Positions 1-7,810 of a stretch of DNA of 11,479 nt are shown here, one piece after another. The notes beneath the pieces are model-generated. The model was not told the DNA's origin. It was given only the letters and a program-made list of their open reading frames with translations, and made no database searches. Position 1 is the stretch's first letter, and the number at the start of each line of letters is the position of its first letter. The position numbers and the translations under genes were made by a program. Where the stretch lies: contig PWLL01000004.1 in NCBI GenBank assembly GCA_003559395.1, positions 1 to 11,479 on the forward strand. Reading direction: 5' to 3'. This DNA is from Candidatus Iainarchaeum sp. GTDB taxonomy: Archaea; Iainarchaeota; Iainarchaeia; Iainarchaeales; CSSED10-239.

Positions 1-6
1 TATAAT
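1..6 (+). promoter_or_regulatory. Probable -10 hexamer of a promoter cut by the window edge
   Basis: The window opens with TATAATGTAATTACAAAAATAAAAGAAAGGAGAAAA..ATG. This is the same -10/leader/RBS layout as the complete promoter and leader at 996-1053. The -35 would lie outside the window. Confidence 0.4.
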
Positions 7-41
7 GTAATTACAAAAATAAAAGAAAGGAGAAAATAAAA

Positions 42-866
42 ATGAATAAAGATTATTTCGGAATAGTTGACTGCGAAACTTGCACTATCCCTGAATTGAA
101 AAAACATAGTGATAATGCGGGACTGAATTTTCCTTTAATCTATGATGTAGCAATACAAATACAAGATAAAGAGGGAAAAATTTTTCATAGGCAACAATGG
201 ATAATATCTGAAACATTTAGCAGGGAATATTTTAATACTGCGTATTATGTAGAAAAAAGACCATTTTATGTAAAACTTGTAAAAGAAAACCCAGAAATTT
301 TAGTTACTTGGGAGCAAGCAAAGATAAAAATGCTCGAGATAATGGAGAAATATAATATAATCGCCTGTGCATACAATGCCTTTTTTGACTTCAAAAAAGC
401 CTTTCATAGTACAAATAGATTTGTTAATGCTTTGTATGGTCTTAACAATAGTGAAACGCTGAACAAATTAATAAAAAATGTTTTGTATTATCAAAAAAAT
501 CAAAAAAAACTTGCTAAAAAATACAAAAACCCCAACAGTCAAAGATTTTGGCTTATTGATAGGTACTTCCCTATAATTGACATCTGGAACTTTGCCTGTC
601 AAACAGTTTTCCAAACAGTAGAGTATAAAGAAATGGCTGTTAAAAATGGCTGGTATAGTCCTGCTGGAAACTATACTACAAATGCAGAAGTGGCTTATCG
701 TTTTATTACAAATAATGTAAATTTTATCGAAAAACACACCGCATTAGAAGATGTAATCATTGAAGGTGAAATATTAAAATACATCTTTGATAACTACAAA
801 GTAAAAACTCCATATGGAATAGAGGGTTTTCCATGGAGGAAGGTTGGAAAAGTACCTAAAAAGTAA
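42..866 (+). CDS. DEDDh-type 3'-5' exonuclease (DnaQ/RNase T-like fold)
   Basis: 274-aa ORF with an AGGAG RBS about 9 nt upstream. Exo I is GIVDCET (D10, E12), Exo II is YNAFFDF, and Exo III is HTALEDV (H-x4-D). Confidence 0.75.
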   Translation: MNKDYFGIVDCETCTIPELKKHSDNAGLNFPLIYDVAIQIQDKEGKIFHRQQWIISETFSREYFNTAYYVEKRPFYVKLVKENPEILVTWEQAKIKMLEIMEKYNIIACAYNAFFDFKKAFHSTNRFVNALYGLNNSETLNKLIKNVLYYQKNQKKLAKKYKNPNSQRFWLIDRYFPIIDIWNFACQTVFQTVEYKEMAVKNGWYSPAGNYTTNAEVAYRFITNNVNFIEKHTALEDVIIEGEILKYIFDNYKVKTPYGIEGFPWRKVGKVPKK

Positions 867-870
867 AAAA

Positions 871-893
871 AGGCGAGAAATCGTCTTTTAATA
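871..893 (+). terminator. Weak intrinsic terminator
   Basis: AGGCGA-GAAA-TCGTCT hairpin (one G:U pair) followed by TTTTAATAA, directly after the stop codon of 42-866. Confidence 0.4.
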
Positions 894-895
894 AT

Positions 896-907
896 TTACC
901 CAACTAA
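896..907 (-). repeat. TTAGTTGGGTAA 12-mer, the only inverted copy
   Basis: The + strand reads TTACCCAACTAA, the exact reverse complement of the 12-mer found 13 times in + orientation. Confidence 0.9.
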
Positions 908-995
908 TTATTGGTAAGATAAAACAAGAGAAATGAAAGTTCAAATGGATTTAATTAGGTAATTATATTAATAAAATTAGTTAAGTGACTTATCA

Positions 996-1024
996 TTGAC
1001 AAAAATTTTATTTTATGGTATAAT
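996..1024 (+). promoter_or_regulatory. Consensus sigma70-type promoter with extended -10
   Basis: TTGACA (996-1001), a 17-nt spacer ending in TGG, then TATAAT (1019-1024). Confidence 0.8.
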
Positions 1025-1053
1025 GCAATTACAATAAAGAAAGGAGAAAAACC

Positions 1054-1227
1054 ATGAAAAAAAAGTATGTACTATGGACAGTTGCAGCAGGCAACGGATT
1101 TAAGTATGAGGTTACACTCTACGAGGGAGAAAAAGAAGGTATACCATCCTATAAAACTCTAAAAACATTCAATACAAAGAAAGAAGCAAAATCTTTCCTT
1201 AAAGAAAAAAGAAAGGGAATTAAATAG
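1054..1227 (+). CDS. Small hypothetical protein (57 aa), missing from the ORF track
   Basis: Translation is MKKKYVLWTVAAGNGFKYEVTLYEGEKEGIPSYKTLKTFNTKKEAKSFLKEKRKGIK. It has an AAAGGAGAAAAACC-ATG RBS, its own consensus promoter upstream and a terminator overlapping the stop codon. Confidence 0.7.
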   Translation: MKKKYVLWTVAAGNGFKYEVTLYEGEKEGIPSYKTLKTFNTKKEAKSFLKEKRKGIK

Positions 1228-1250
1228 GGCGAGAAGCCCTTTTATTTTTT
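1226..1250 (+). terminator. Intrinsic terminator
   Basis: AGGGC-GAGAA-GCCCT hairpin followed by TTTATTTTTT. Confidence 0.55.
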
Positions 1251-1261
1251 TAGTTGGGTAA
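1250..1261 (+). repeat. TTAGTTGGGTAA 12-mer copy
   Basis: Exact 12-mer. Confidence 0.9.
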
Positions 1262-1282
1262 TTTATTCTCTTTTGTTAAAAT

Positions 1283-1294
1283 TTAGTTGGGTAA
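1283..1294 (+). repeat. TTAGTTGGGTAA 12-mer copy
   Basis: Exact 12-mer. Confidence 0.9.
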
Positions 1295-1339
1295 ACCGCA
1301 ATTACAAATGTAGGTTATACTTAAATCACAAGCTACAAT

Positions 1340-1467
1340 TTTAGTTGGGTAAAAAAAATTTAGTTGGGTAAAAAAAATTTAGTTGGGTAAAAAAAAATTT
1401 AGTTGGGTAAAAAAATTTAGTTGGGTAAAAGAAAATTTAGTTGGGTAAAAAAAATTTAGTTGGGTAA
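1340..1467 (+). repeat. Iteron-like tandem array: 7 copies of TTTAGTTGGGTAA plus an A7-9 tract
   Basis: 12-mer cores start at 1341, 1360, 1379, 1399, 1417, 1437 and 1456, giving spacings of 19, 19, 20, 18, 20 and 19 bp. Each core is followed by an A-tract. The array ends 8 bp before the -35 at 1475. Confidence 0.9.
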
Positions 1468-1474
1468 CTAATGA

Positions 1475-1503
1475 TTGACAAAACCCTTATTTTATAATAT
1501 AAT
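1475..1503 (+). promoter_or_regulatory. Consensus sigma70-type promoter
   Basis: TTGACA (1475-1480), a 17-nt spacer, then TATAAT (1498-1503). A second overlapping TATAAT at 1493-1498 has only a 12-nt spacer. Confidence 0.7.
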
Positions 1504-1532
1504 ATATATATAAAGCAAGAAAGGAGGTATAT

Positions 1533-1880
1533 ATGAATATAAATTATAATTGCCCTGTACCTGTCATCAACAACAAAAAAAAGTATGTTTTATATAATAT
1601 ATATATAGGCTCTAAAAAGTTGAATTATATAAAAATAGGCACTACTAATAACCCTGAAAGGCGGTTCAAAGAGATTTCAAAATATTATGATAGCGATATC
1701 ATAGTGAACTGGATTTCTCCCCCTATGACTAAATACTCCGCTCTTCGTTTCGAGGACAGGTTCAAAGAAGAGAAAAAAAGCAAAGGCTGGTTGTTTGTTC
1801 CAAATGACAAATTCATTAAACCAGTAAGGGTAAAGGAGGAAAAAATAAAAATCAGAAAAGAATATGAGTTCTCTTATTGA
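1533..1880 (+). CDS. T5orf172 / GIY-YIG-superfamily-like domain protein
   Basis: 115-aa ORF with a strong AAAGGAGG RBS. The pattern KYVLYNIYIG..YIKIGTTNNPERRFKEI..RFEDRFKE resembles the GIY / (Y/K)IG / R / E pattern of GIY-YIG and T5orf172 domains. The assignment comes from motif recall only. Confidence 0.5.
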   Translation: MNINYNCPVPVINNKKKYVLYNIYIGSKKLNYIKIGTTNNPERRFKEISKYYDSDIIVNWISPPMTKYSALRFEDRFKEEKKSKGWLFVPNDKFIKPVRVKEEKIKIRKEYEFSY

Positions 1881-1896
1881 GGACTCTATTTTTTAT

Positions 1897-1908
1897 TTAG
1901 TTGGGTAA
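1897..1908 (+). repeat. TTAGTTGGGTAA 12-mer copy
   Basis: Exact 12-mer, followed by AATCTTTTTTTAGTCAA. Confidence 0.9.
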
Positions 1909-1978
1909 ATCTTTTTTTAGTCAATTTTTTCAGTAATTATCCGCAACTTTTCTACTTTTGTAGACATTTAGTAAAATT

Positions 1979-1990
1979 TTAGTTGGGTAA
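1979..1990 (+). repeat. TTAGTTGGGTAA 12-mer copy (extended form)
   Basis: Exact 12-mer within AATTTTAGTTGGGTAAATTTTTTTTTAATTAAC. This is almost the same 32-mer as at 2562-2595. Confidence 0.9.
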
Positions 1991-2006
1991 ATTTTTTTTT
2001 AATTAA

Positions 2007-2031
2007 CTACAATTACAAATTATAATTGTAG
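2007..2031. repeat. 9-bp inverted repeat
   Basis: CTACAATTA-caaatta-TAATTGTAG. The CAATTACAA-type motif recurs in leaders and intergenic DNA (near 10, 1026, 1300, 4015 and 10808). A (CA)n run follows at 2033-2046. Confidence 0.6.
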
Positions 2032-2073
2032 TCCACACACACACAAACTTAATTAGTTATATAGTTAAGCTAG

Positions 2074-2095
2074 AAAGTGCGGGCAGCCGCACTTT
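2074..2095. terminator. GC-rich hairpin downstream of the minus-strand gene 2109-2411
   Basis: AAAGTGCGG-GCAG-CCGCACTTT is a 9-bp stem, flanked on both sides by the direct repeat AAGCTAG. The T-tail is poor in both directions. Confidence 0.4.
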
Positions 2096-2108
2096 AAGCT
2101 AGAGGCCT

Positions 2109-2411
2109 TTACAATCCATAAGTCCAATCAACACTTACAGTGAGCACGCCCATTTTATCACGAAAAGCACCATTTTTTGCGATTCGGCTTTTTACCACAT
2201 ACCCCTCATCTCTTAATACACCTAGACCTACAATTATCACTCTTGGATCCCACATAGTTAAGTTAAATTTAAGGACTGTGTTATAATTCCCTTTTTTTGC
2301 CTCTTGTTTTATTTCTGAATAACATACTTTCAAAAATTCATCATATTCGGGTTTTTTAAGATGAACCTCATTTGCCGTTATACAAGCATCCTGTGCATAA
2401 AATTTATCCAT
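2109..2411 (-). CDS. Hypothetical protein (100 aa)
   Basis: ORF with an AAAGGAGA RBS 7 nt upstream (reverse complement of 2412-2428) and its own consensus promoter. Confidence 0.7.
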   Translation of the reverse strand: MDKFYAQDACITANEVHLKKPEYDEFLKVCYSEIKQEAKKGNYNTVLKFNLTMWDPRVIIVGLGVLRDEGYVVKSRIAKNGAFRDKMGVLTVSVDWTYGL

Positions 2412-2443
2412 TTATTATCTCCTTTTTTATTTATTATACTATA

Positions 2444-2472
2444 ATTATATCATAGTTGAACTATTTTGTCAA
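2444..2472 (-). promoter_or_regulatory. Consensus sigma70-type promoter (minus strand)
   Basis: The reverse complement reads TTGACA (2472-2467), a 17-nt spacer ending in TGA, then TATAAT (2449-2444). Confidence 0.8.
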
Positions 2473-2530
2473 GCGTTTGTTTTATATAAACTTAATGTAA
2501 TTAATAGTTTAATCACCTAATGAAGTTTGA

Positions 2531-2567
2531 AATTCGCCTAAAAAGTAAAAAAGTTAGGCGAATTTTT
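2531..2567 (+). terminator. Terminator-like hairpin
   Basis: AATTCGCCTA / TAGGCGAATT is a 10-bp stem with a 14-nt A-rich loop, followed by TTT. No + strand gene lies immediately upstream, so its role is uncertain. Confidence 0.4.
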
Positions 2568-2577
2568 AGTTGGGTAA
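2566..2577 (+). repeat. TTAGTTGGGTAA 12-mer copy (extended form)
   Basis: Exact 12-mer within AATTTTTAGTTGGGTAAATTTTTTTTTAGTTAAC. Confidence 0.9.
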
Positions 2578-2740
2578 ATTTTTTTTTAGTTAACCTTTAA
2601 CCATAATTACCATCCAATGACTATAATTTACACTAATAATCAAATAAGCAGCTACAAATTACACCAATGGTCATATCAGCAACCACAGTTGGCATTAACC
2701 ACCAGCTACAAACATCCTTAAAAATTCATAATCTGTTTAC

Positions 2741-2769
2741 TTGACTTTGAGCTAAAACTATAGTATAAT
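2741..2769 (+). promoter_or_regulatory. Tandem promoter 1 of 3
   Basis: TTGACT (2741-2746), a 17-nt spacer, then TATAAT (2764-2769), followed by ATATATATA. Confidence 0.75.
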
Positions 2770-2827
2770 ATATATATAAGATAAAGAAAAGGAAAAAATT
2801 AAATTAATTCGTTCACAAAAAATTCAC

Positions 2828-2856
2828 TTGATTTTTTCCGAAATGTATGGTATAAT
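2828..2856 (+). promoter_or_regulatory. Tandem promoter 2 of 3
   Basis: TTGATT (2828-2833), a 17-nt spacer ending in TGG, then TATAAT (2851-2856). Confidence 0.7.
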
Positions 2857-2912
2857 ATATATATATAAGATAAAGGAAAGAAAAAAAAATAAAAAAGATA
2901 AAAACAAAATGC

Positions 2913-2941
2913 TTGACTTTCATCGAACCGTATGTTATAAT
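2913..2941 (+). promoter_or_regulatory. Tandem promoter 3 of 3
   Basis: TTGACT (2913-2918), a 17-nt spacer ending in TGT, then TATAAT (2936-2941). Confidence 0.8.
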
Positions 2942-2993
2942 ATAAGTATAATAAGAATTGAAAAGTAGTTAAGACACAGAAAGGGGTCAAATC

Positions 2994-3278
2994 ATGGCTA
3001 TGAAAGAAATGGACAGGAAAAATGCTGTTAGGGAGGAAGCTCTCAAGGAAATCAATCTGGAAGGTTACACTCAGGTAGCAACCGCATCTTTTATCAAGGA
3101 AGTTGAGAATGGTTTCGTAGAGGTTAAAGTAATTGCAAAAAACGCTACCTTCGGTGAAGCTGAACTCGCAGAAGCAGTTGAAAACTACAACTTCGAGCTT
3201 GAGGAAAGGGCAAAAAGAGAAGCCAAAGCTGAGGCTAAAAGGAAAGAAAAAGCCGAAAAAGCAAAGTCTAAAGAATAA
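2994..3278 (+). CDS. Hypothetical protein (94 aa) with an acidic core and a Lys/Glu/Ala-rich tail
   Basis: ORF with an AAAGGGG RBS. The C-terminus is RAKREAKAEAKRKEKAEKAKSKE. It sits behind three stacked promoters and upstream of the ncRNA and tRNA genes, with no terminator in between. Confidence 0.7.
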   Translation: MAMKEMDRKNAVREEALKEINLEGYTQVATASFIKEVENGFVEVKVIAKNATFGEAELAEAVENYNFELEERAKREAKAEAKRKEKAEKAKSKE

Positions 3279-3280
3279 TC

Positions 3281-3311
3281 TCCTAACCTGAGCAAGTTAT
3301 AAAACTGCTCC
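3281..3311 (+). repeat. Hairpin-motif copy (stem GAGCA/TGCTC, loop AGTTATAAAAC)
   Basis: TCCTAACCTGAGCAAGTTATAAAACTGCTC. It belongs to the family found at 7001-7233. Confidence 0.7.
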
Positions 3312-3690
3312 CTTATGAGGGCACGTGTATAAATATCCCTCAATACTCGAAAAAAGGTTTATAGTAGAGACGGAGATTCCAAACCAGAAACCTTTGAGCC
3401 TTAATCCTAGGATAGTAACGTATAGCGGTCCCGCTGGGAAATCCGATAAAGTTACTCCAATAATGGAAGGCGACAGTCCACGAGGTAATTCTCCAGAAGC
3501 ACTGTTAGGGAAACTCACCAGACGCAGCAGTCTGAGCAAAAAAATGCTAAACCAATGGTAAATTGGGGTTGCGTCCCCACGGATAGCATAAGTCCATTCA
3601 CTGCAGAGATAAAGTTATGTAAAGTCACGGATGAGCCGTGCCATTGGTAGTTATTCATTGGTAGGCATACCGAATGACTAAATGTAGCCC
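3311..3690 (+). ncRNA. Candidate structured ncRNA I (about 380 nt, class unknown)
   Basis: The region is GC-enriched relative to its flanks. It carries overlapping ORFs on both strands that lack an RBS. Local helices are dense: TGAGGG/CCCTCA (3316/3337), AAAGGTTT/AAACCTTT (3353/3387), AGTAAC/GTTACT (3414/3451) enclosing TCCC-GCT-GGGA, CAGAC/GTCTG (3519/3530), CCAAT/ATTGG (3552/3562) and CACGG/CCGTG (3626/3636). A hairpin-motif copy lies on each side, and the region is co-oriented with the downstream tRNAs. Confidence 0.55.
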
Positions 3691-3716
3691 GACCCGAGCA
3701 AGTCGTTAAACTGCTT
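3690..3716 (+). repeat. Hairpin-motif copy (stem GAGCA/TGCTT, loop AGTCGTTAAAC)
   Basis: CGACCCGAGCAAGTCGTTAAACTGCTT. Confidence 0.7.
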
Positions 3717-3730
3717 TCTTCAAAAAAAAC

Positions 3731-3808
3731 GGGGGTGTAGTTTAAGTGGGAAAGCATCTGTTTTGCAAGCAGAAGAAGTGAAGAGTTCGAATCTCTCCAC
3801 CTCCACCA
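3731..3808 (+). tRNA. tRNA-Ala (anticodon TGC)
   Basis: The acceptor stem GGGGGTG/CACCTCC has G3:U70. The anticodon loop is TTTGCAA and the T-loop is TTCGAAT. A73 and CCA are encoded. The hand fold gives a slightly long variable region. Confidence 0.8.
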
Positions 3809-3814
3809 TTACAA

Positions 3815-3887
3815 GGCAGAGAGAATCGGTATTCAAGTAAGGTTCATACCCTTGCCTTCGTAGGTTCGACTCCTACCTCTGCAACCA
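3815..3887 (+). tRNA. Atypical tRNA-like gene, anticodon CAT
   Basis: The T-arm GTAGG-TTCGACT-CCTAC is canonical and the anticodon loop is TTCATAC. The D-arm is GAAT-CGGT-ATTC, with only a 4-nt loop and no GG. There are 2-3 nt between the D and anticodon stems, and pair 1:72 is a G/A mismatch. CCA is encoded. Confidence 0.5.
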
Positions 3888-3894
3888 GCCCACA

Positions 3895-3937
3895 TCCTAA
3901 CGCTTGGCGAGCTGATGGTACTGGTTAAACAGTTAGG
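3895..3937 (+). repeat. Hairpin-motif variant with an insertion in the loop
   Basis: TCCTAAC-gcttggcgagctgatggtactggt-TAAAC-AGTTAGG. The outer stem CCTAAC/GTTAGG is retained. Confidence 0.55.
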
Positions 3938-3980
3938 GTTCAAAAAAAAGCCAAAATTGTCCTCAAAAGGGGCGTAAAAT

Positions 3981-4009
3981 GGAGTTACATTCGTAACTTC
4001 ATTTTTTTA
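3981..4009 (+). terminator. Intrinsic terminator of the 2741-3890 transcription unit
   Basis: GGAGTTAC-ATTC-GTAACTTC is an 8-bp stem followed by ATTTTTTTA. Confidence 0.75.
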
Positions 4010-4125
4010 TGCCGCGACTACAAATATAAATTATAATTCTACAATATAGACCTAACAAGTCCACTCGCCGCACTATAATTAAGTCAAACTAAAAACTTAG
4101 AGCTAGAAACTTGATATATTAACCC

Positions 4126-4154
4126 TTGACTTTCATTTCCAATTATGTTATACT
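4126..4154 (+). promoter_or_regulatory. Promoter of tRNA block 2
   Basis: TTGACT (4126-4131), a 17-nt spacer ending in TGT, then TATACT (4149-4154). Confidence 0.75.
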
Positions 4155-4222
4155 ATATATAGAATAAAAAAAGATAGTGTTTTTTGTAAAGACTAAACAT
4201 TAATTTTTTACAAGAGGTATAT

Positions 4223-4298
4223 GGGGTTTTAGTTCAGAGGTTAGAGCATTTCTCTCATAAGGAAAAAGCCCAAGGTTCAAATCCTTGAAGCCCCACCA
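4223..4298 (+). tRNA. tRNA with anticodon CAT (Met or lysidine-Ile)
   Basis: Acceptor GGGGTTT/AAGCCCC, D-arm GTTC-AGAGGTTA-GAGC, anticodon loop CTCATAA, T-arm CAAGG-TTCAAAT-CCTTG, then A73 and CCA. Confidence 0.85.
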
Positions 4299-4301
4299 CG
4301 A

Positions 4302-4378
4302 TCCTCACTCGTCCAACTGGTAGGACACCGCACTTTTAATGCGGATTAGTATAGGTTCAAGTCCTATGTGAGGAACCA
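4302..4378 (+). tRNA. tRNA-Lys (TTT)
   Basis: Acceptor TCCTCAC/GTGAGGA, anticodon arm CCGCA-CTTTTAA-TGCGG, T-arm ATAGG-TTCAAGT-CCTAT, CCA encoded. Confidence 0.85.
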
Positions 4379-4388
4379 AAAAATATAA

Positions 4389-4462
4389 GGGTCTTTATTT
4401 CAACGGTAGAATTCTGGTCTCCAGAACCAGCGATTAAGGTTCAAATCCTTAAAGACCTGCCA
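4389..4462 (+). tRNA. tRNA-Trp (CCA)
   Basis: Acceptor GGGTCTT/AAGACCT (G1:U72), anticodon arm CTGGT-CTCCAGA-ACCAG, T-arm TAAGG-TTCAAAT-CCTTA, then G73 and CCA. Confidence 0.8.
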
Positions 4463-6971: not shown

Positions 6972-7000
6972 ATATATATAATAAAATAAAGGTTTAGTTG

Positions 7001-7233
7001 GTCCTGAGCAAGACATTAAACTACTTAGCAACAGAAAAGTCCTAAACAAAAGACTCCTTTGCTCACCTTAAACTGTTTAGTCCTAAGCCAGACTATAAAA
7101 TGCTTTATGTCCAGCAAGACGATAAACTGCTATTGCAGTGTCCTAAACAAGACCTGTGAGCTTTGATAAAAAGTTTTAGAACTTTTTATCCCCAAACTGT
7201 TTAGTCCTAAACAAGACTATAAACTGCTTATAG
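7001..7233 (+). repeat. Six abutting copies of the (G)TCCTAAACAAGAC-N-AAACTG(C/T)TTAG hairpin motif
   Basis: Units lie at 7001-7028, 7039-7080, 7081-7108, 7109-7135, 7140-7204 and 7205-7233. The 5-bp inner stem is (G/A)A(G/A)CA / TG(C/T)T(C/T) and the 11-nt loop is AGAC-NNN-AAAC. Units 2 and 5 carry 15-nt and 40-nt insertions inside the loop. The unit 5 insertion is itself a hairpin, GATAAAAAGTT/AACTTTTTATC. Confidence 0.75.
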
Positions 7234-7245
7234 TATAAATTTAAT

Positions 7246-7810
7246 GTACCTTGAAAAAATAATATTTGTATCTTAGTGTATGACACGCCTGTGTGCTAAG
7301 AGCCTCCGCATATTAAGAACCTACATAGAGGGATACCTTTATAAGAGTTCTTTAGTTGTTAAGCAATTAACAATTAGAAGAGCCAAAAGCTCAACAATAG
7401 GGATGCGTGCTGTTCTCAGGAAGAAGATAAGATATGTAAAGGACTCGAGAAGGTAATATACGCCTACAGTGTAGGAATGAGCCAATATGCAAATAGGGTA
7501 AGACCTATTTGACCACTATTGGTAAGCTGACCCAACTTCTTTAGCCGTGATGTGCAAGAAATTGTGCTATAAGAGATTCCTTACAGTAAAAGTAGCCTAA
7601 GGCTTAAAGAATATGGAACTGATAATTCCGTTTTATTTAATAAGCTGAACGGTAGGTGAAATTTACAGGTAGAAAATCCTGTCTGTGCTTGACAAGGGTG
7701 AAAAGTATTAGGGTAGCTCCTTAATATTCAGCTTCACTCTCACAGTGATCGAACATCCCATTCTGTTGATGGTAAAACGAAAGTTTACAAATATTATTTT
7801 TTCAAGGTAC
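7246..7810 (+). ncRNA. Candidate large structured ncRNA II (565 nt), possibly ROOL/GOLLD-class
   Basis: GTACCTTGAAAAAATAATATTTGTA (7246-7270) is the perfect reverse complement of 7786-7810. The interior is GC-enriched and has no credible ORF. It is rich in hairpins, some with G:U pairs and a GNRA loop: TCTTAGTGTA/TGTGCTAAGA (7271/7292), TTGTTAA-GCAA-TTAACAA (7357-7374), GAGC/GCTC (7380/7389), CCTAC/GTAGG (7462/7470), AATAGG/CCTATT (7492/7504) and ACAGG/CCTGT (7665/7678). It lies downstream of the tandem promoters. Confidence 0.6.

Follow-up and report, generated by a model that had tools for sequence, protein, structure and literature searches.

An orphan, probably non-coding block beside tRNA-Ala on a misbinned phage contig, and its possible identity as a processed RNA

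The window analysed here is the entire 11,479-nucleotide (nt) contig C35 (PWLL01000004.1), one of the 115 contigs of a 0.91-Mb metagenome-assembled genome (MAG) filed as Candidatus Iainarchaeum sp., and the element in question is a G+C-enriched block that lies between a small orphan gene and a tRNA-Ala gene. We find that the block is very probably non-coding and, judging by the signals around it, almost certainly transcribed together with both neighbours. An earlier, sequence-only reading had taken it for a structured non-coding RNA (ncRNA) co-transcribed with the small gene and tRNA-Ala. The observation itself is confirmed, and the non-coding character and the co-transcription stand, whereas the claim of a structured RNA is unproven: the predicted fold is weak and alike on both strands, and no homologues were found. 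The interpretation that we favour, with a probability of roughly 45%, is a processed ncRNA with a 5′ end protected by a conserved motif and a 3′ end cut by RNase P at tRNA-Ala.

The block and its transcription unit

The G+C content is 0.43–0.47 over positions 3300–3700, compared with 0.21–0.29 in the promoter spacers of the contig (2400–2999 and 4000–4199), which bears out the enrichment noticed in the sequence-only reading. The three mutually overlapping open reading frames (ORFs) of 78–80 amino acids (aa) that it had described on the two strands, all lacking a ribosome-binding site, are also present (Table 1). No Shine–Dalgarno (SD) sequence occurs within 15 nt upstream of any ORF start in the block, whereas the neighbouring ORF has one. 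Pfam and PHROGs, at least one of which was run on every tested ORF, yielded no family. A comparison with 1.84 billion protein representatives gave no credible homologue of the plus-strand ORF; the one match is a 1545-aa repeat protein with a chance score of 24.6 bits summed over several repeats. The minus-strand ORF at 3297–3539 has no shared words and no candidate among 5.8 billion proteins. The other minus-strand ORF (3515–3757) was checked against PHROGs, Pfam and by exact look-up only. Exact look-up in a collection of 15 billion proteins returned no called gene for any ORF with an ATG start; look-ups of GTG- and TTG-start ORFs were not counted, because the collection would start such proteins with Met.

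Several other identities were considered and rejected. An alternative genetic code does not explain the block, as stop codons of two or three kinds interrupt each of the six frames and no single reassignment opens it; under code 4, the longest frame has its start within the neighbouring gene, in a different frame, and matches no Pfam family. A decayed tRNA or tRNA-like domain (TLD) was not found on the plus strand by ARAGORN at 75–95% of its thresholds. Complementarity to other parts of the contig is no longer than 10–14 nt, which argues against an antisense or sponge RNA. Palindromic loops that might mediate self-association give no signal either: three 6-nt palindromes (CACGTG, CCTAGG and CTGCAG) occur, compared with about six expected.

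The signals on either side of the block suggest a single transcription unit. Upstream are the three stacked promoters of the sequence-only reading, TTGACT-17-TATAAT, TTGATT-17-TATAAT and TTGACT-17-TATAAT, which match the consensus at 11, 10 and 11 of 12 positions, respectively. No promoter-like site of at least 10/12 occurs between 2941 and 3731, where the sole plus-strand site scores 9/12 and lies inside an ORF, and no terminator-like site was scored at 3279–3980. The hairpin and T-run at about 3981, before which the sequence-only reading had seen no terminator, are visible by eye; the terminator scan skipped this hairpin because its stem has fewer than three G–C pairs. As tRNA-Ala has no promoter of its own and no terminator intervenes, it is presumably read from the stacked promoters through the block.

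Table 1. Features of the transcription unit and of the block, by position in the window
Feature	Position	Strand	Details
Three tandem near-consensus sigma-70-type promoters	2741–2941	+	Starts 2741, 2828 and 2913
Orphan 94-aa ORF, first cistron	2994–3278	+	SD-like purine-rich AAAGGGG about 7 nt before ATG; Lys/Glu-rich C terminus
Pseudoknot motif, copy 1	3284–3311	+	Stem TAAC/GTTA, loop CTGAGCAA, 10-nt spacer TAAAACTGCT; 5 nt past the ORF stop
ORF, 80 aa, TTG start	3297–3539	−	
Candidate block	3311–3689	+	ORF-poor, 44% G+C, predicted string of hairpins (from folds)
Hairpin	3316–3342	+	Predicted; pair probabilities 0.3–0.7
ORF, 78 aa, GTG start	3325–3561	+	
Hairpin	3355–3393	+	Predicted; pair probabilities 0.3–0.7
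Long irregular arm	3398–3471	+	Predicted; contains the nested helices of the sequence-only reading
Small ORF, 32 aa	3463–3561		
Hairpin	3472–3506	+	Predicted
ORF, 80 aa, ATG start	3515–3757	−	
Hairpin	3519–3534	+	Predicted
Hairpin	3535–3548	+	Predicted
Three-way domain	3551–3648	+	Predicted; closed by CCAATGG/CCATTGG
Small ORF, 31 aa, Cys-containing	3555–3650		Ends 39 nt before motif copy 2
Hairpin	3649–3679	+	Predicted
Pseudoknot motif, copy 2	3690–3717	+	Stem CGAC/GTCG, loop CCGAGCAA, spacer TTAAACTGCT; ends 14 nt before tRNA-Ala
tRNA-Ala (UGC)	3731–3808	+	Encoded CCA; ARAGORN; Rfam tRNA 49.1 bits
Atypical tRNA-like gene, CAT anticodon	3815–3887	+	ARAGORN; 25.3 bits against an Rfam tRNA gathering score of 29
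Hairpin GGAGTTAC/GTAACTTC and T-run	3981–4010	+	First terminator-like site past the promoters; read from the sequence

The first cistron is as isolated as the block itself. Among 5.8 billion proteins the 94-aa product matches only itself, and it has no PHROG and no significant Pfam family; it was therefore rejected as a handle to relatives of the block, being an orphan itself. The promoter region is more widely shared. An extended early-promoter signature at 2828–2888, TTGAYTTTTTY-NN-AAAT-N-T-N-TGRTATAATAT, occurs in 108 IMG/VR phage contigs (L237–L343), the largest of 100–190 kb, and behind this promoter, both in the window and in L114, a phage fragment described below, comes a conserved leader that reads GTATAAGAT.AAG or similar. 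At the other end of the unit, a motif-like element (TTGG...CTGG TTAAACAGTTAGGG) lies after the tRNA-like gene, within 3888–3980 and ahead of the terminator.

The flanking pseudoknot motif

The block is bracketed, as the sequence-only reading had proposed, by two copies of a 28-nt motif that is a real, widespread conserved RNA element. Its pattern matches four times in the window, compared with 0.02 matches expected, and the flanking copies have nhmmer E-values within the window of 1e-9 and 7e-9. The 17-base pattern that we used to search IMG/VR is carried by more than 116 contigs, with similarity that extends over 25–33 nt. Across more than 100 IMG/VR instances the 4-bp stem covaries, occurring as GAC/GTC, AAC/GTT, CAC/GTG, CGAC/GTCG and TAAC/GTTA, and the loop sequence GAGCA can pair with a downstream TGCTC to give a pseudoknot.

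The motif has a preferred position. In 111 non-redundant instances (L006–L121) the median distance from the stop codon of an upstream ORF on the same strand to the motif is 10 nt (within 30 nt in 72 of 109), and that from the motif to the next ORF is 62 nt; of 133 instances in other phages, six have a tRNA 2–14 nt beyond the end of the motif. Such placement may serve to distinguish an exonuclease roadblock from a protector of 3′ ends or an involvement in translation termination. Behind the motif, the DNA turns over quickly, as two closely related phage contigs (L105 and L034) differ by a non-coding indel of about 130 nt immediately after a motif copy.

The spacer of the motif resembles the published coremin motif, GUCCGAAGACGUUAAACUAC (PMC10520033). 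Coremin elements consist of a short first hairpin (3–5 bp), a conserved spacer of 8–10 nt and a second hairpin directly downstream, and tolerate loops of up to eight bases (PMC6546385, PMC10520033). Copy 1 has this layout: TAAC and GTTA enclose CTGAGCAA, the spacer TAAAACTGCT follows, and a hairpin CCCT-TATG-AGGG (about 3310–3322) can form directly after it. The loop of copy 1 is not strictly of the YGAD or YGNNAD type; where coremin has YGAD, the phage motif has the octaloop CYGAGCAA, which can pair with the 3′ TGCTC instead. Copy 2 is without a clear second hairpin.

Further copies on the contig form an array of variants at 7000–7230, between duplicated promoters (starts 6860 and 6943) and the gene for the large RNA ROOL. 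Because motif variants and duplicated promoters precede ROOL, this proven RNA gene shares the promoter–motif–RNA design of the block. The stretch between the duplicated promoters and ROOL (7000–7247), with its four or five divergent motif copies, itself folds better than shuffled sequence, with minimum free energy (MFE) z-scores of −2.6 on the plus strand and −4.9 on the minus strand.

Favoured reading and rival explanations

In the reading that we favour, the unit would be an early RNA operon of a phage, made up of the three promoters, the 94-aa ORF, the block, tRNA-Ala, the tRNA-like gene and the terminator. Host RNA polymerase would start at the stacked promoters and continue across the block as far as the tRNAs, and RNase P, cutting at 3730/3731, the 5′ end of tRNA-Ala, would set the 3′ end of the upstream RNA. 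The coremin-like pseudoknot at 3284–3311 would serve as a stable 5′ structure and may stop a 5′-to-3′ exonuclease such as RNase J, which is present in Firmicutes. An RNA of about 400–450 nt with six to eight hairpin domains might then outlast the mRNA part. Support for this reading comes from a block without SD sequences or protein families, promoters with no terminator behind them before about 3981, the ROOL-like design, the conserved motif, the G+C content, a fold 1.7–2.2 SD more stable than shuffled sequence and the analogous layout of L114. If a stable RNA is indeed made, the logic of its production can be read from the DNA: promoters in a stack, then a cap behind a stop codon that would block decay, and finally a cut by RNase P.

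The nearest analogies for such an RNA may be the stable RNAs of unknown function that lie beside tRNA genes in other large phages. Uncatalogued RNAs recur in this position, including ROOL, GOLLD, manA-type RNAs and the long ncRNAs of phage K, none of which has a known function. The tRNA cluster of phage T4 yields two stable RNAs of about 120–140 nt, species 1 and 2 (RNA C and RNA D), which are co-transcribed with the phage tRNAs, are freed by tRNA-processing enzymes and accumulate, with no known function. The proposed block RNA would resemble them in being co-transcribed with tRNAs, by the logic of its sequence, and would be longer; the relation was examined by blastn only, which was negative.

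Staphylococcus phage K (Kayvirus, Herelleviridae) encodes two ncRNAs beside its tRNA genes, lnc001 and lnc002, one of them transcribed from a promoter upstream of a tRNA; they are 635 and about 1150 nt long, abundant by RNA sequencing (RNA-seq), absent from Rfam and of unknown function (PMC9241854). Like the block, they adjoin tRNAs and fall outside Rfam, and their large Firmicutes myophage is of the same broad group as the nearest cultured relatives of C35, Enterococcus phages EF1 and VRE9. They differ in being longer and in having been seen as transcripts, and blastn against about 50,000 phage records shows no similarity to the block. ROOL and GOLLD (RF03087 and RF02032), which also have no known function, are encoded by phages or prophages, often in the vicinity of tRNA islands (PMC5737381, PMC12286853). 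On C35, ROOL lies 3.6 kb downstream of the block in the same setting of stacked promoters and motif. ROOL and GOLLD are nevertheless larger (570–800 nt, compared with 380 nt), and the block lacks their long closing helix, a match to their models and a family.

A bolder version of the favoured reading draws on the exonuclease-resistant ncRNAs of RNA viruses, such as ncRNA3 from BNYVV (beet necrotic yellow vein virus), which has a coremin (xrRNA_C) element at its 5′ end, and the subgenomic flaviviral RNA (sfRNA) (PMC5869530, PMC6546385, PMC10520033). As in ncRNA3, copy 1 lies just past a coding region and has two hairpins, the first of them short, on either side of a conserved spacer (about 10 nt, GUUAAACU...). 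In a bacterial host, the nuclease would be RNase J or another enzyme rather than Xrn1. The block would then be the phage counterpart of sfRNA and ncRNA3: the mRNA of the 94-aa ORF would decay from its 5′ end up to the pseudoknot and leave a capped, structured RNA of about 440 nt with a 3′ end made by RNase P, specific to its lineage and acting in the course of infection as, for instance, a decoy or a scaffold beside the genes for ROOL and the tag-less transfer-messenger RNA (tmRNA). We consider this rather unlikely.

Folding predictions give the block a string of hairpins. From 3398 onward, the helices have pair probabilities of 0.8–0.99, and the arm that had been folded by hand in the sequence-only reading (AGTAAC/GTTACT enclosing CGG/CCG, which encloses TCCC-GCT-GGGA) is recovered in the MFE, maximum expected accuracy and centroid structures with probabilities of 0.9–0.99. 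Three runs against shuffled sequences gave plus-strand MFE z-scores of −1.9, −2.2 and −1.65; five coding-sequence controls range from −1.5 to +0.7 (−1.0 to +0.7 on the coding strand). For the block, the z-scores are −1.1 for ensemble diversity and +1.3 for the fraction of bases paired at a probability above 0.8. The block is thus slightly more foldable than coding sequence and far below a proven ornate RNA, and its overall fold is not clearly above chance.

Relatives were sought in several collections, with about 3 Mb of related phage loci searched overall. The homologues that the sequence-only reading had proposed to look for did not appear: the block has no match in about 50,000 INPHARED phage genomes (blastn), no homologue in 61 and then 215 genomes of the phylum of the MAG (blastn or nhmmer), and is absent from 116 IMG/VR loci with the flanking motif (blastn or nhmmer) and from 80 IMG/VR loci around more distant (30–38% identical) homologues of an exonuclease-like gene of the contig. 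Single-sequence covariance models of two parts of the block (R1, 3549–3690; R2, 3396–3550) reached at best 11 bits over 1.9 Mb, with E-values of at least 4. Hairpin patterns, with stems coded as purine or pyrimidine (R/Y) and loops exact, found nothing in IMG/VR or in GTDB genomes and, in metagenomes of the JGI, only a near-identical contig (L236) that overlaps the window. Neither IMG/VR nor the GTDB genomes contain another pair of motif copies at a spacing of 365–400 nt. The block is therefore an orphan and, if functional, lineage-specific. An analogous layout occurs in the IMG/VR fragment L114: behind the same type of promoter lie a 35-aa ORF, about 320 nt of G+C-rich DNA free of ORFs, the motif and, last, tRNA-Gly.

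Several results weigh against an RNA with a function. The G+C content sets the block apart from spacer DNA, not from coding sequence, because the neighbouring coding sequences (0.41) and tRNAs (0.40–0.48) are equally G+C-rich. The minus strand folds as well as the plus strand (z of −1.6 and −2.5), leaving no strand asymmetry, and the signal is weak beside that of ROOL on the same contig (−5.3 on the plus strand and −4.0 on the minus strand). One coding-sequence control matches the block in definition of structure, with −1.6 for ensemble diversity and +1.6 for confident pairs. Co-occurrence with ROOL, which the sequence-only reading had proposed as a test, was not seen: in related phages, 16 tRNA islands centred on ROOL lack both block and motif. 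Nor does any of 107 loci that share the extended promoter contain the block. As no homologue was found, no covarying pair backs any helix, and even the L114 block cannot be aligned with it (local score of 24, compared with 22.5 ± 2.9 for shuffled sequences). The lack of a homologue in any collection searched, the z-score of only about −2 on either strand, the equally well-defined coding control and the unrelated L114 sequence are all in keeping with a passive transcribed spacer or leader, perhaps the remnant of a decayed gene or an insertion, that is discarded after RNase P processing and forms hairpins as any sequence of 44% G+C would. We regard such a spacer as the main rival and a serious possibility, if short of an even chance; were it correct, G+C enrichment and hand-folded helices would be insufficient grounds for calling a structured RNA in an A+T-rich phage. 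The true spacers of C35, however, have 21–29% G+C, compared with 44% in the block, and are full of promoters and repeats. The motif copies on the two sides of the block are among the best-scoring ones, and in other places this conserved motif adjoins genes, tRNAs and ROOL. Phage genomes are also compact, and three stacked promoters feed this unit; nor is there a trace of a decayed tRNA (ARAGORN at 75%) or protein gene.

Two further explanations would give the block a familiar product. One or more small proteins might be made from the 78-aa GTG-start ORF, the 32-aa ORF or the 31-aa Cys-containing ORF, by SD-less or coupled translation. The frames are open, the G+C content equals that of neighbouring coding sequences, and the motif usually trails the stop codon of a real ORF by about 10–100 nt, a range that includes the distance of the 31-aa ORF from copy 2. 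The lack of SD-like sequences, protein families, credible homologues and called genes described above makes this very unlikely, and chance would be expected to produce overlapping ORFs on two strands where the DNA is less A+T-rich than on either side. We give hardly any credence to the idea that the block is a very divergent or fragmentary copy of a known large RNA, such as the 5′ domain of GOLLD, a manA-like RNA, RNase P RNA or a tmRNA coding piece for the TLD minigenes. GOLLD, ROOL and manA-type RNAs do reside in phage tRNA islands (PMC12286853), and the contig does carry tag-less tmRNA TLD genes. A scan of the whole window with Rfam 15 (cmscan, E ≤ 1), however, found nothing inside 3311–3690, whereas it readily found ROOL, TLD genes and tRNAs, which indicates that the method works on this DNA. 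The block alone, scanned with lax filters at E ≤ 10, gave five noise matches (snoR71, tsr31, SAM-II, a snoRNA and Polynucleobacter-1) of 12–19 bits, compared with gathering scores of 37–50. Rfam thus offers no match to ROOL, GOLLD, manA, RNase P RNA (types A, B and archaeal), tmRNA, 6S RNA, signal recognition particle (SRP) RNA, group I or II introns or ribozymes, in agreement with the failure of the sequence-only reading to place the block among RNase P, tmRNA, 6S and SRP RNAs. A sequence AAGUCC at about 3590 is faintly similar to the CR-I region of RNase P RNA and serves as a lead only.

Phage origin of the contig and related tRNA islands

C35 is a fragment of a large, Firmicutes-type bacterial phage that has been misbinned into an archaeal MAG, as shown by its tRNAs, ROOL, TLD genes, promoters, exonuclease relatives and soda-lake twin. 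The MAG is archaeal: its contig C81 encodes an RNase P RNA of the archaeal type (96 bits, which exceeds the cut-off; a 28-bit type-B match is the same locus), and the MAG has a scattered tRNA set of its own. C35, by contrast, carries 23 bacterial-type tRNAs with encoded CCA (ARAGORN), a full-length ROOL (7248–7806, 298 bits), tag-less tmRNA TLD minigenes (both from the Rfam scan) and numerous promoters of the TTGACA-17-TATAAT consensus. Among the contigs of the MAG, only C35 combines dense sigma-70 promoters with two motif copies; C103 has one weak match to the motif pattern. Host RNase P RNA was rejected as an identity for the block, as the MAG has an archaeal one on C81 and C35 is foreign to it.

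The relatives of a 274-aa exonuclease-like protein encoded at 42–866 point to the same source. In culture they are Enterococcus phages of about 140 kb (EF1, EF5, VRE9 and H1; 31–32% identity), and uncultured relatives at 30–38% identity are IMG/VR phage contigs, mostly fragments, the largest of 100–190 kb. The closest relatives (51–59% identity) are found only among Logan/ENA contigs. A JGI contig from soda-lake sediment (L236; SL_3KL_010_SEDDRAFT_10019031) overlaps positions 1–3469 of the window in reverse orientation at 99.65% identity. All 12 differences lie outside 3311–3469, and L236 ends at window position 3469; at the other end, it reaches about 2 kb further upstream than the window does.

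The exonuclease-like gene is shared by 50 phage records (contigs of 17–190 kb), 16 of which carry a full-length ROOL (271–334 bits); none of these 16 has the coremin-like motif. These IMG/VR records (G220, G235, G239–G241, G244, G246, G251, G252, G254–G258, G262 and G263; loci L220–L235) have ROOL mostly within islands that hold as many as 32 tRNAs; in several of the islands, tRNAs are separated by gaps of 0.5–1.4 kb. The 6.2-kb phage fragment L114 (IMGVR_UViG_3300028832_002517; minus strand, 1–4400) has 145–320 nt of G+C-rich, ORF-free sequence in every inter-tRNA gap, and Rfam finds only tRNAs in its island. Two of these gap blocks have a common element, GCGTGCTCGTAAA(C/T)C, and may be paralogous small RNAs.

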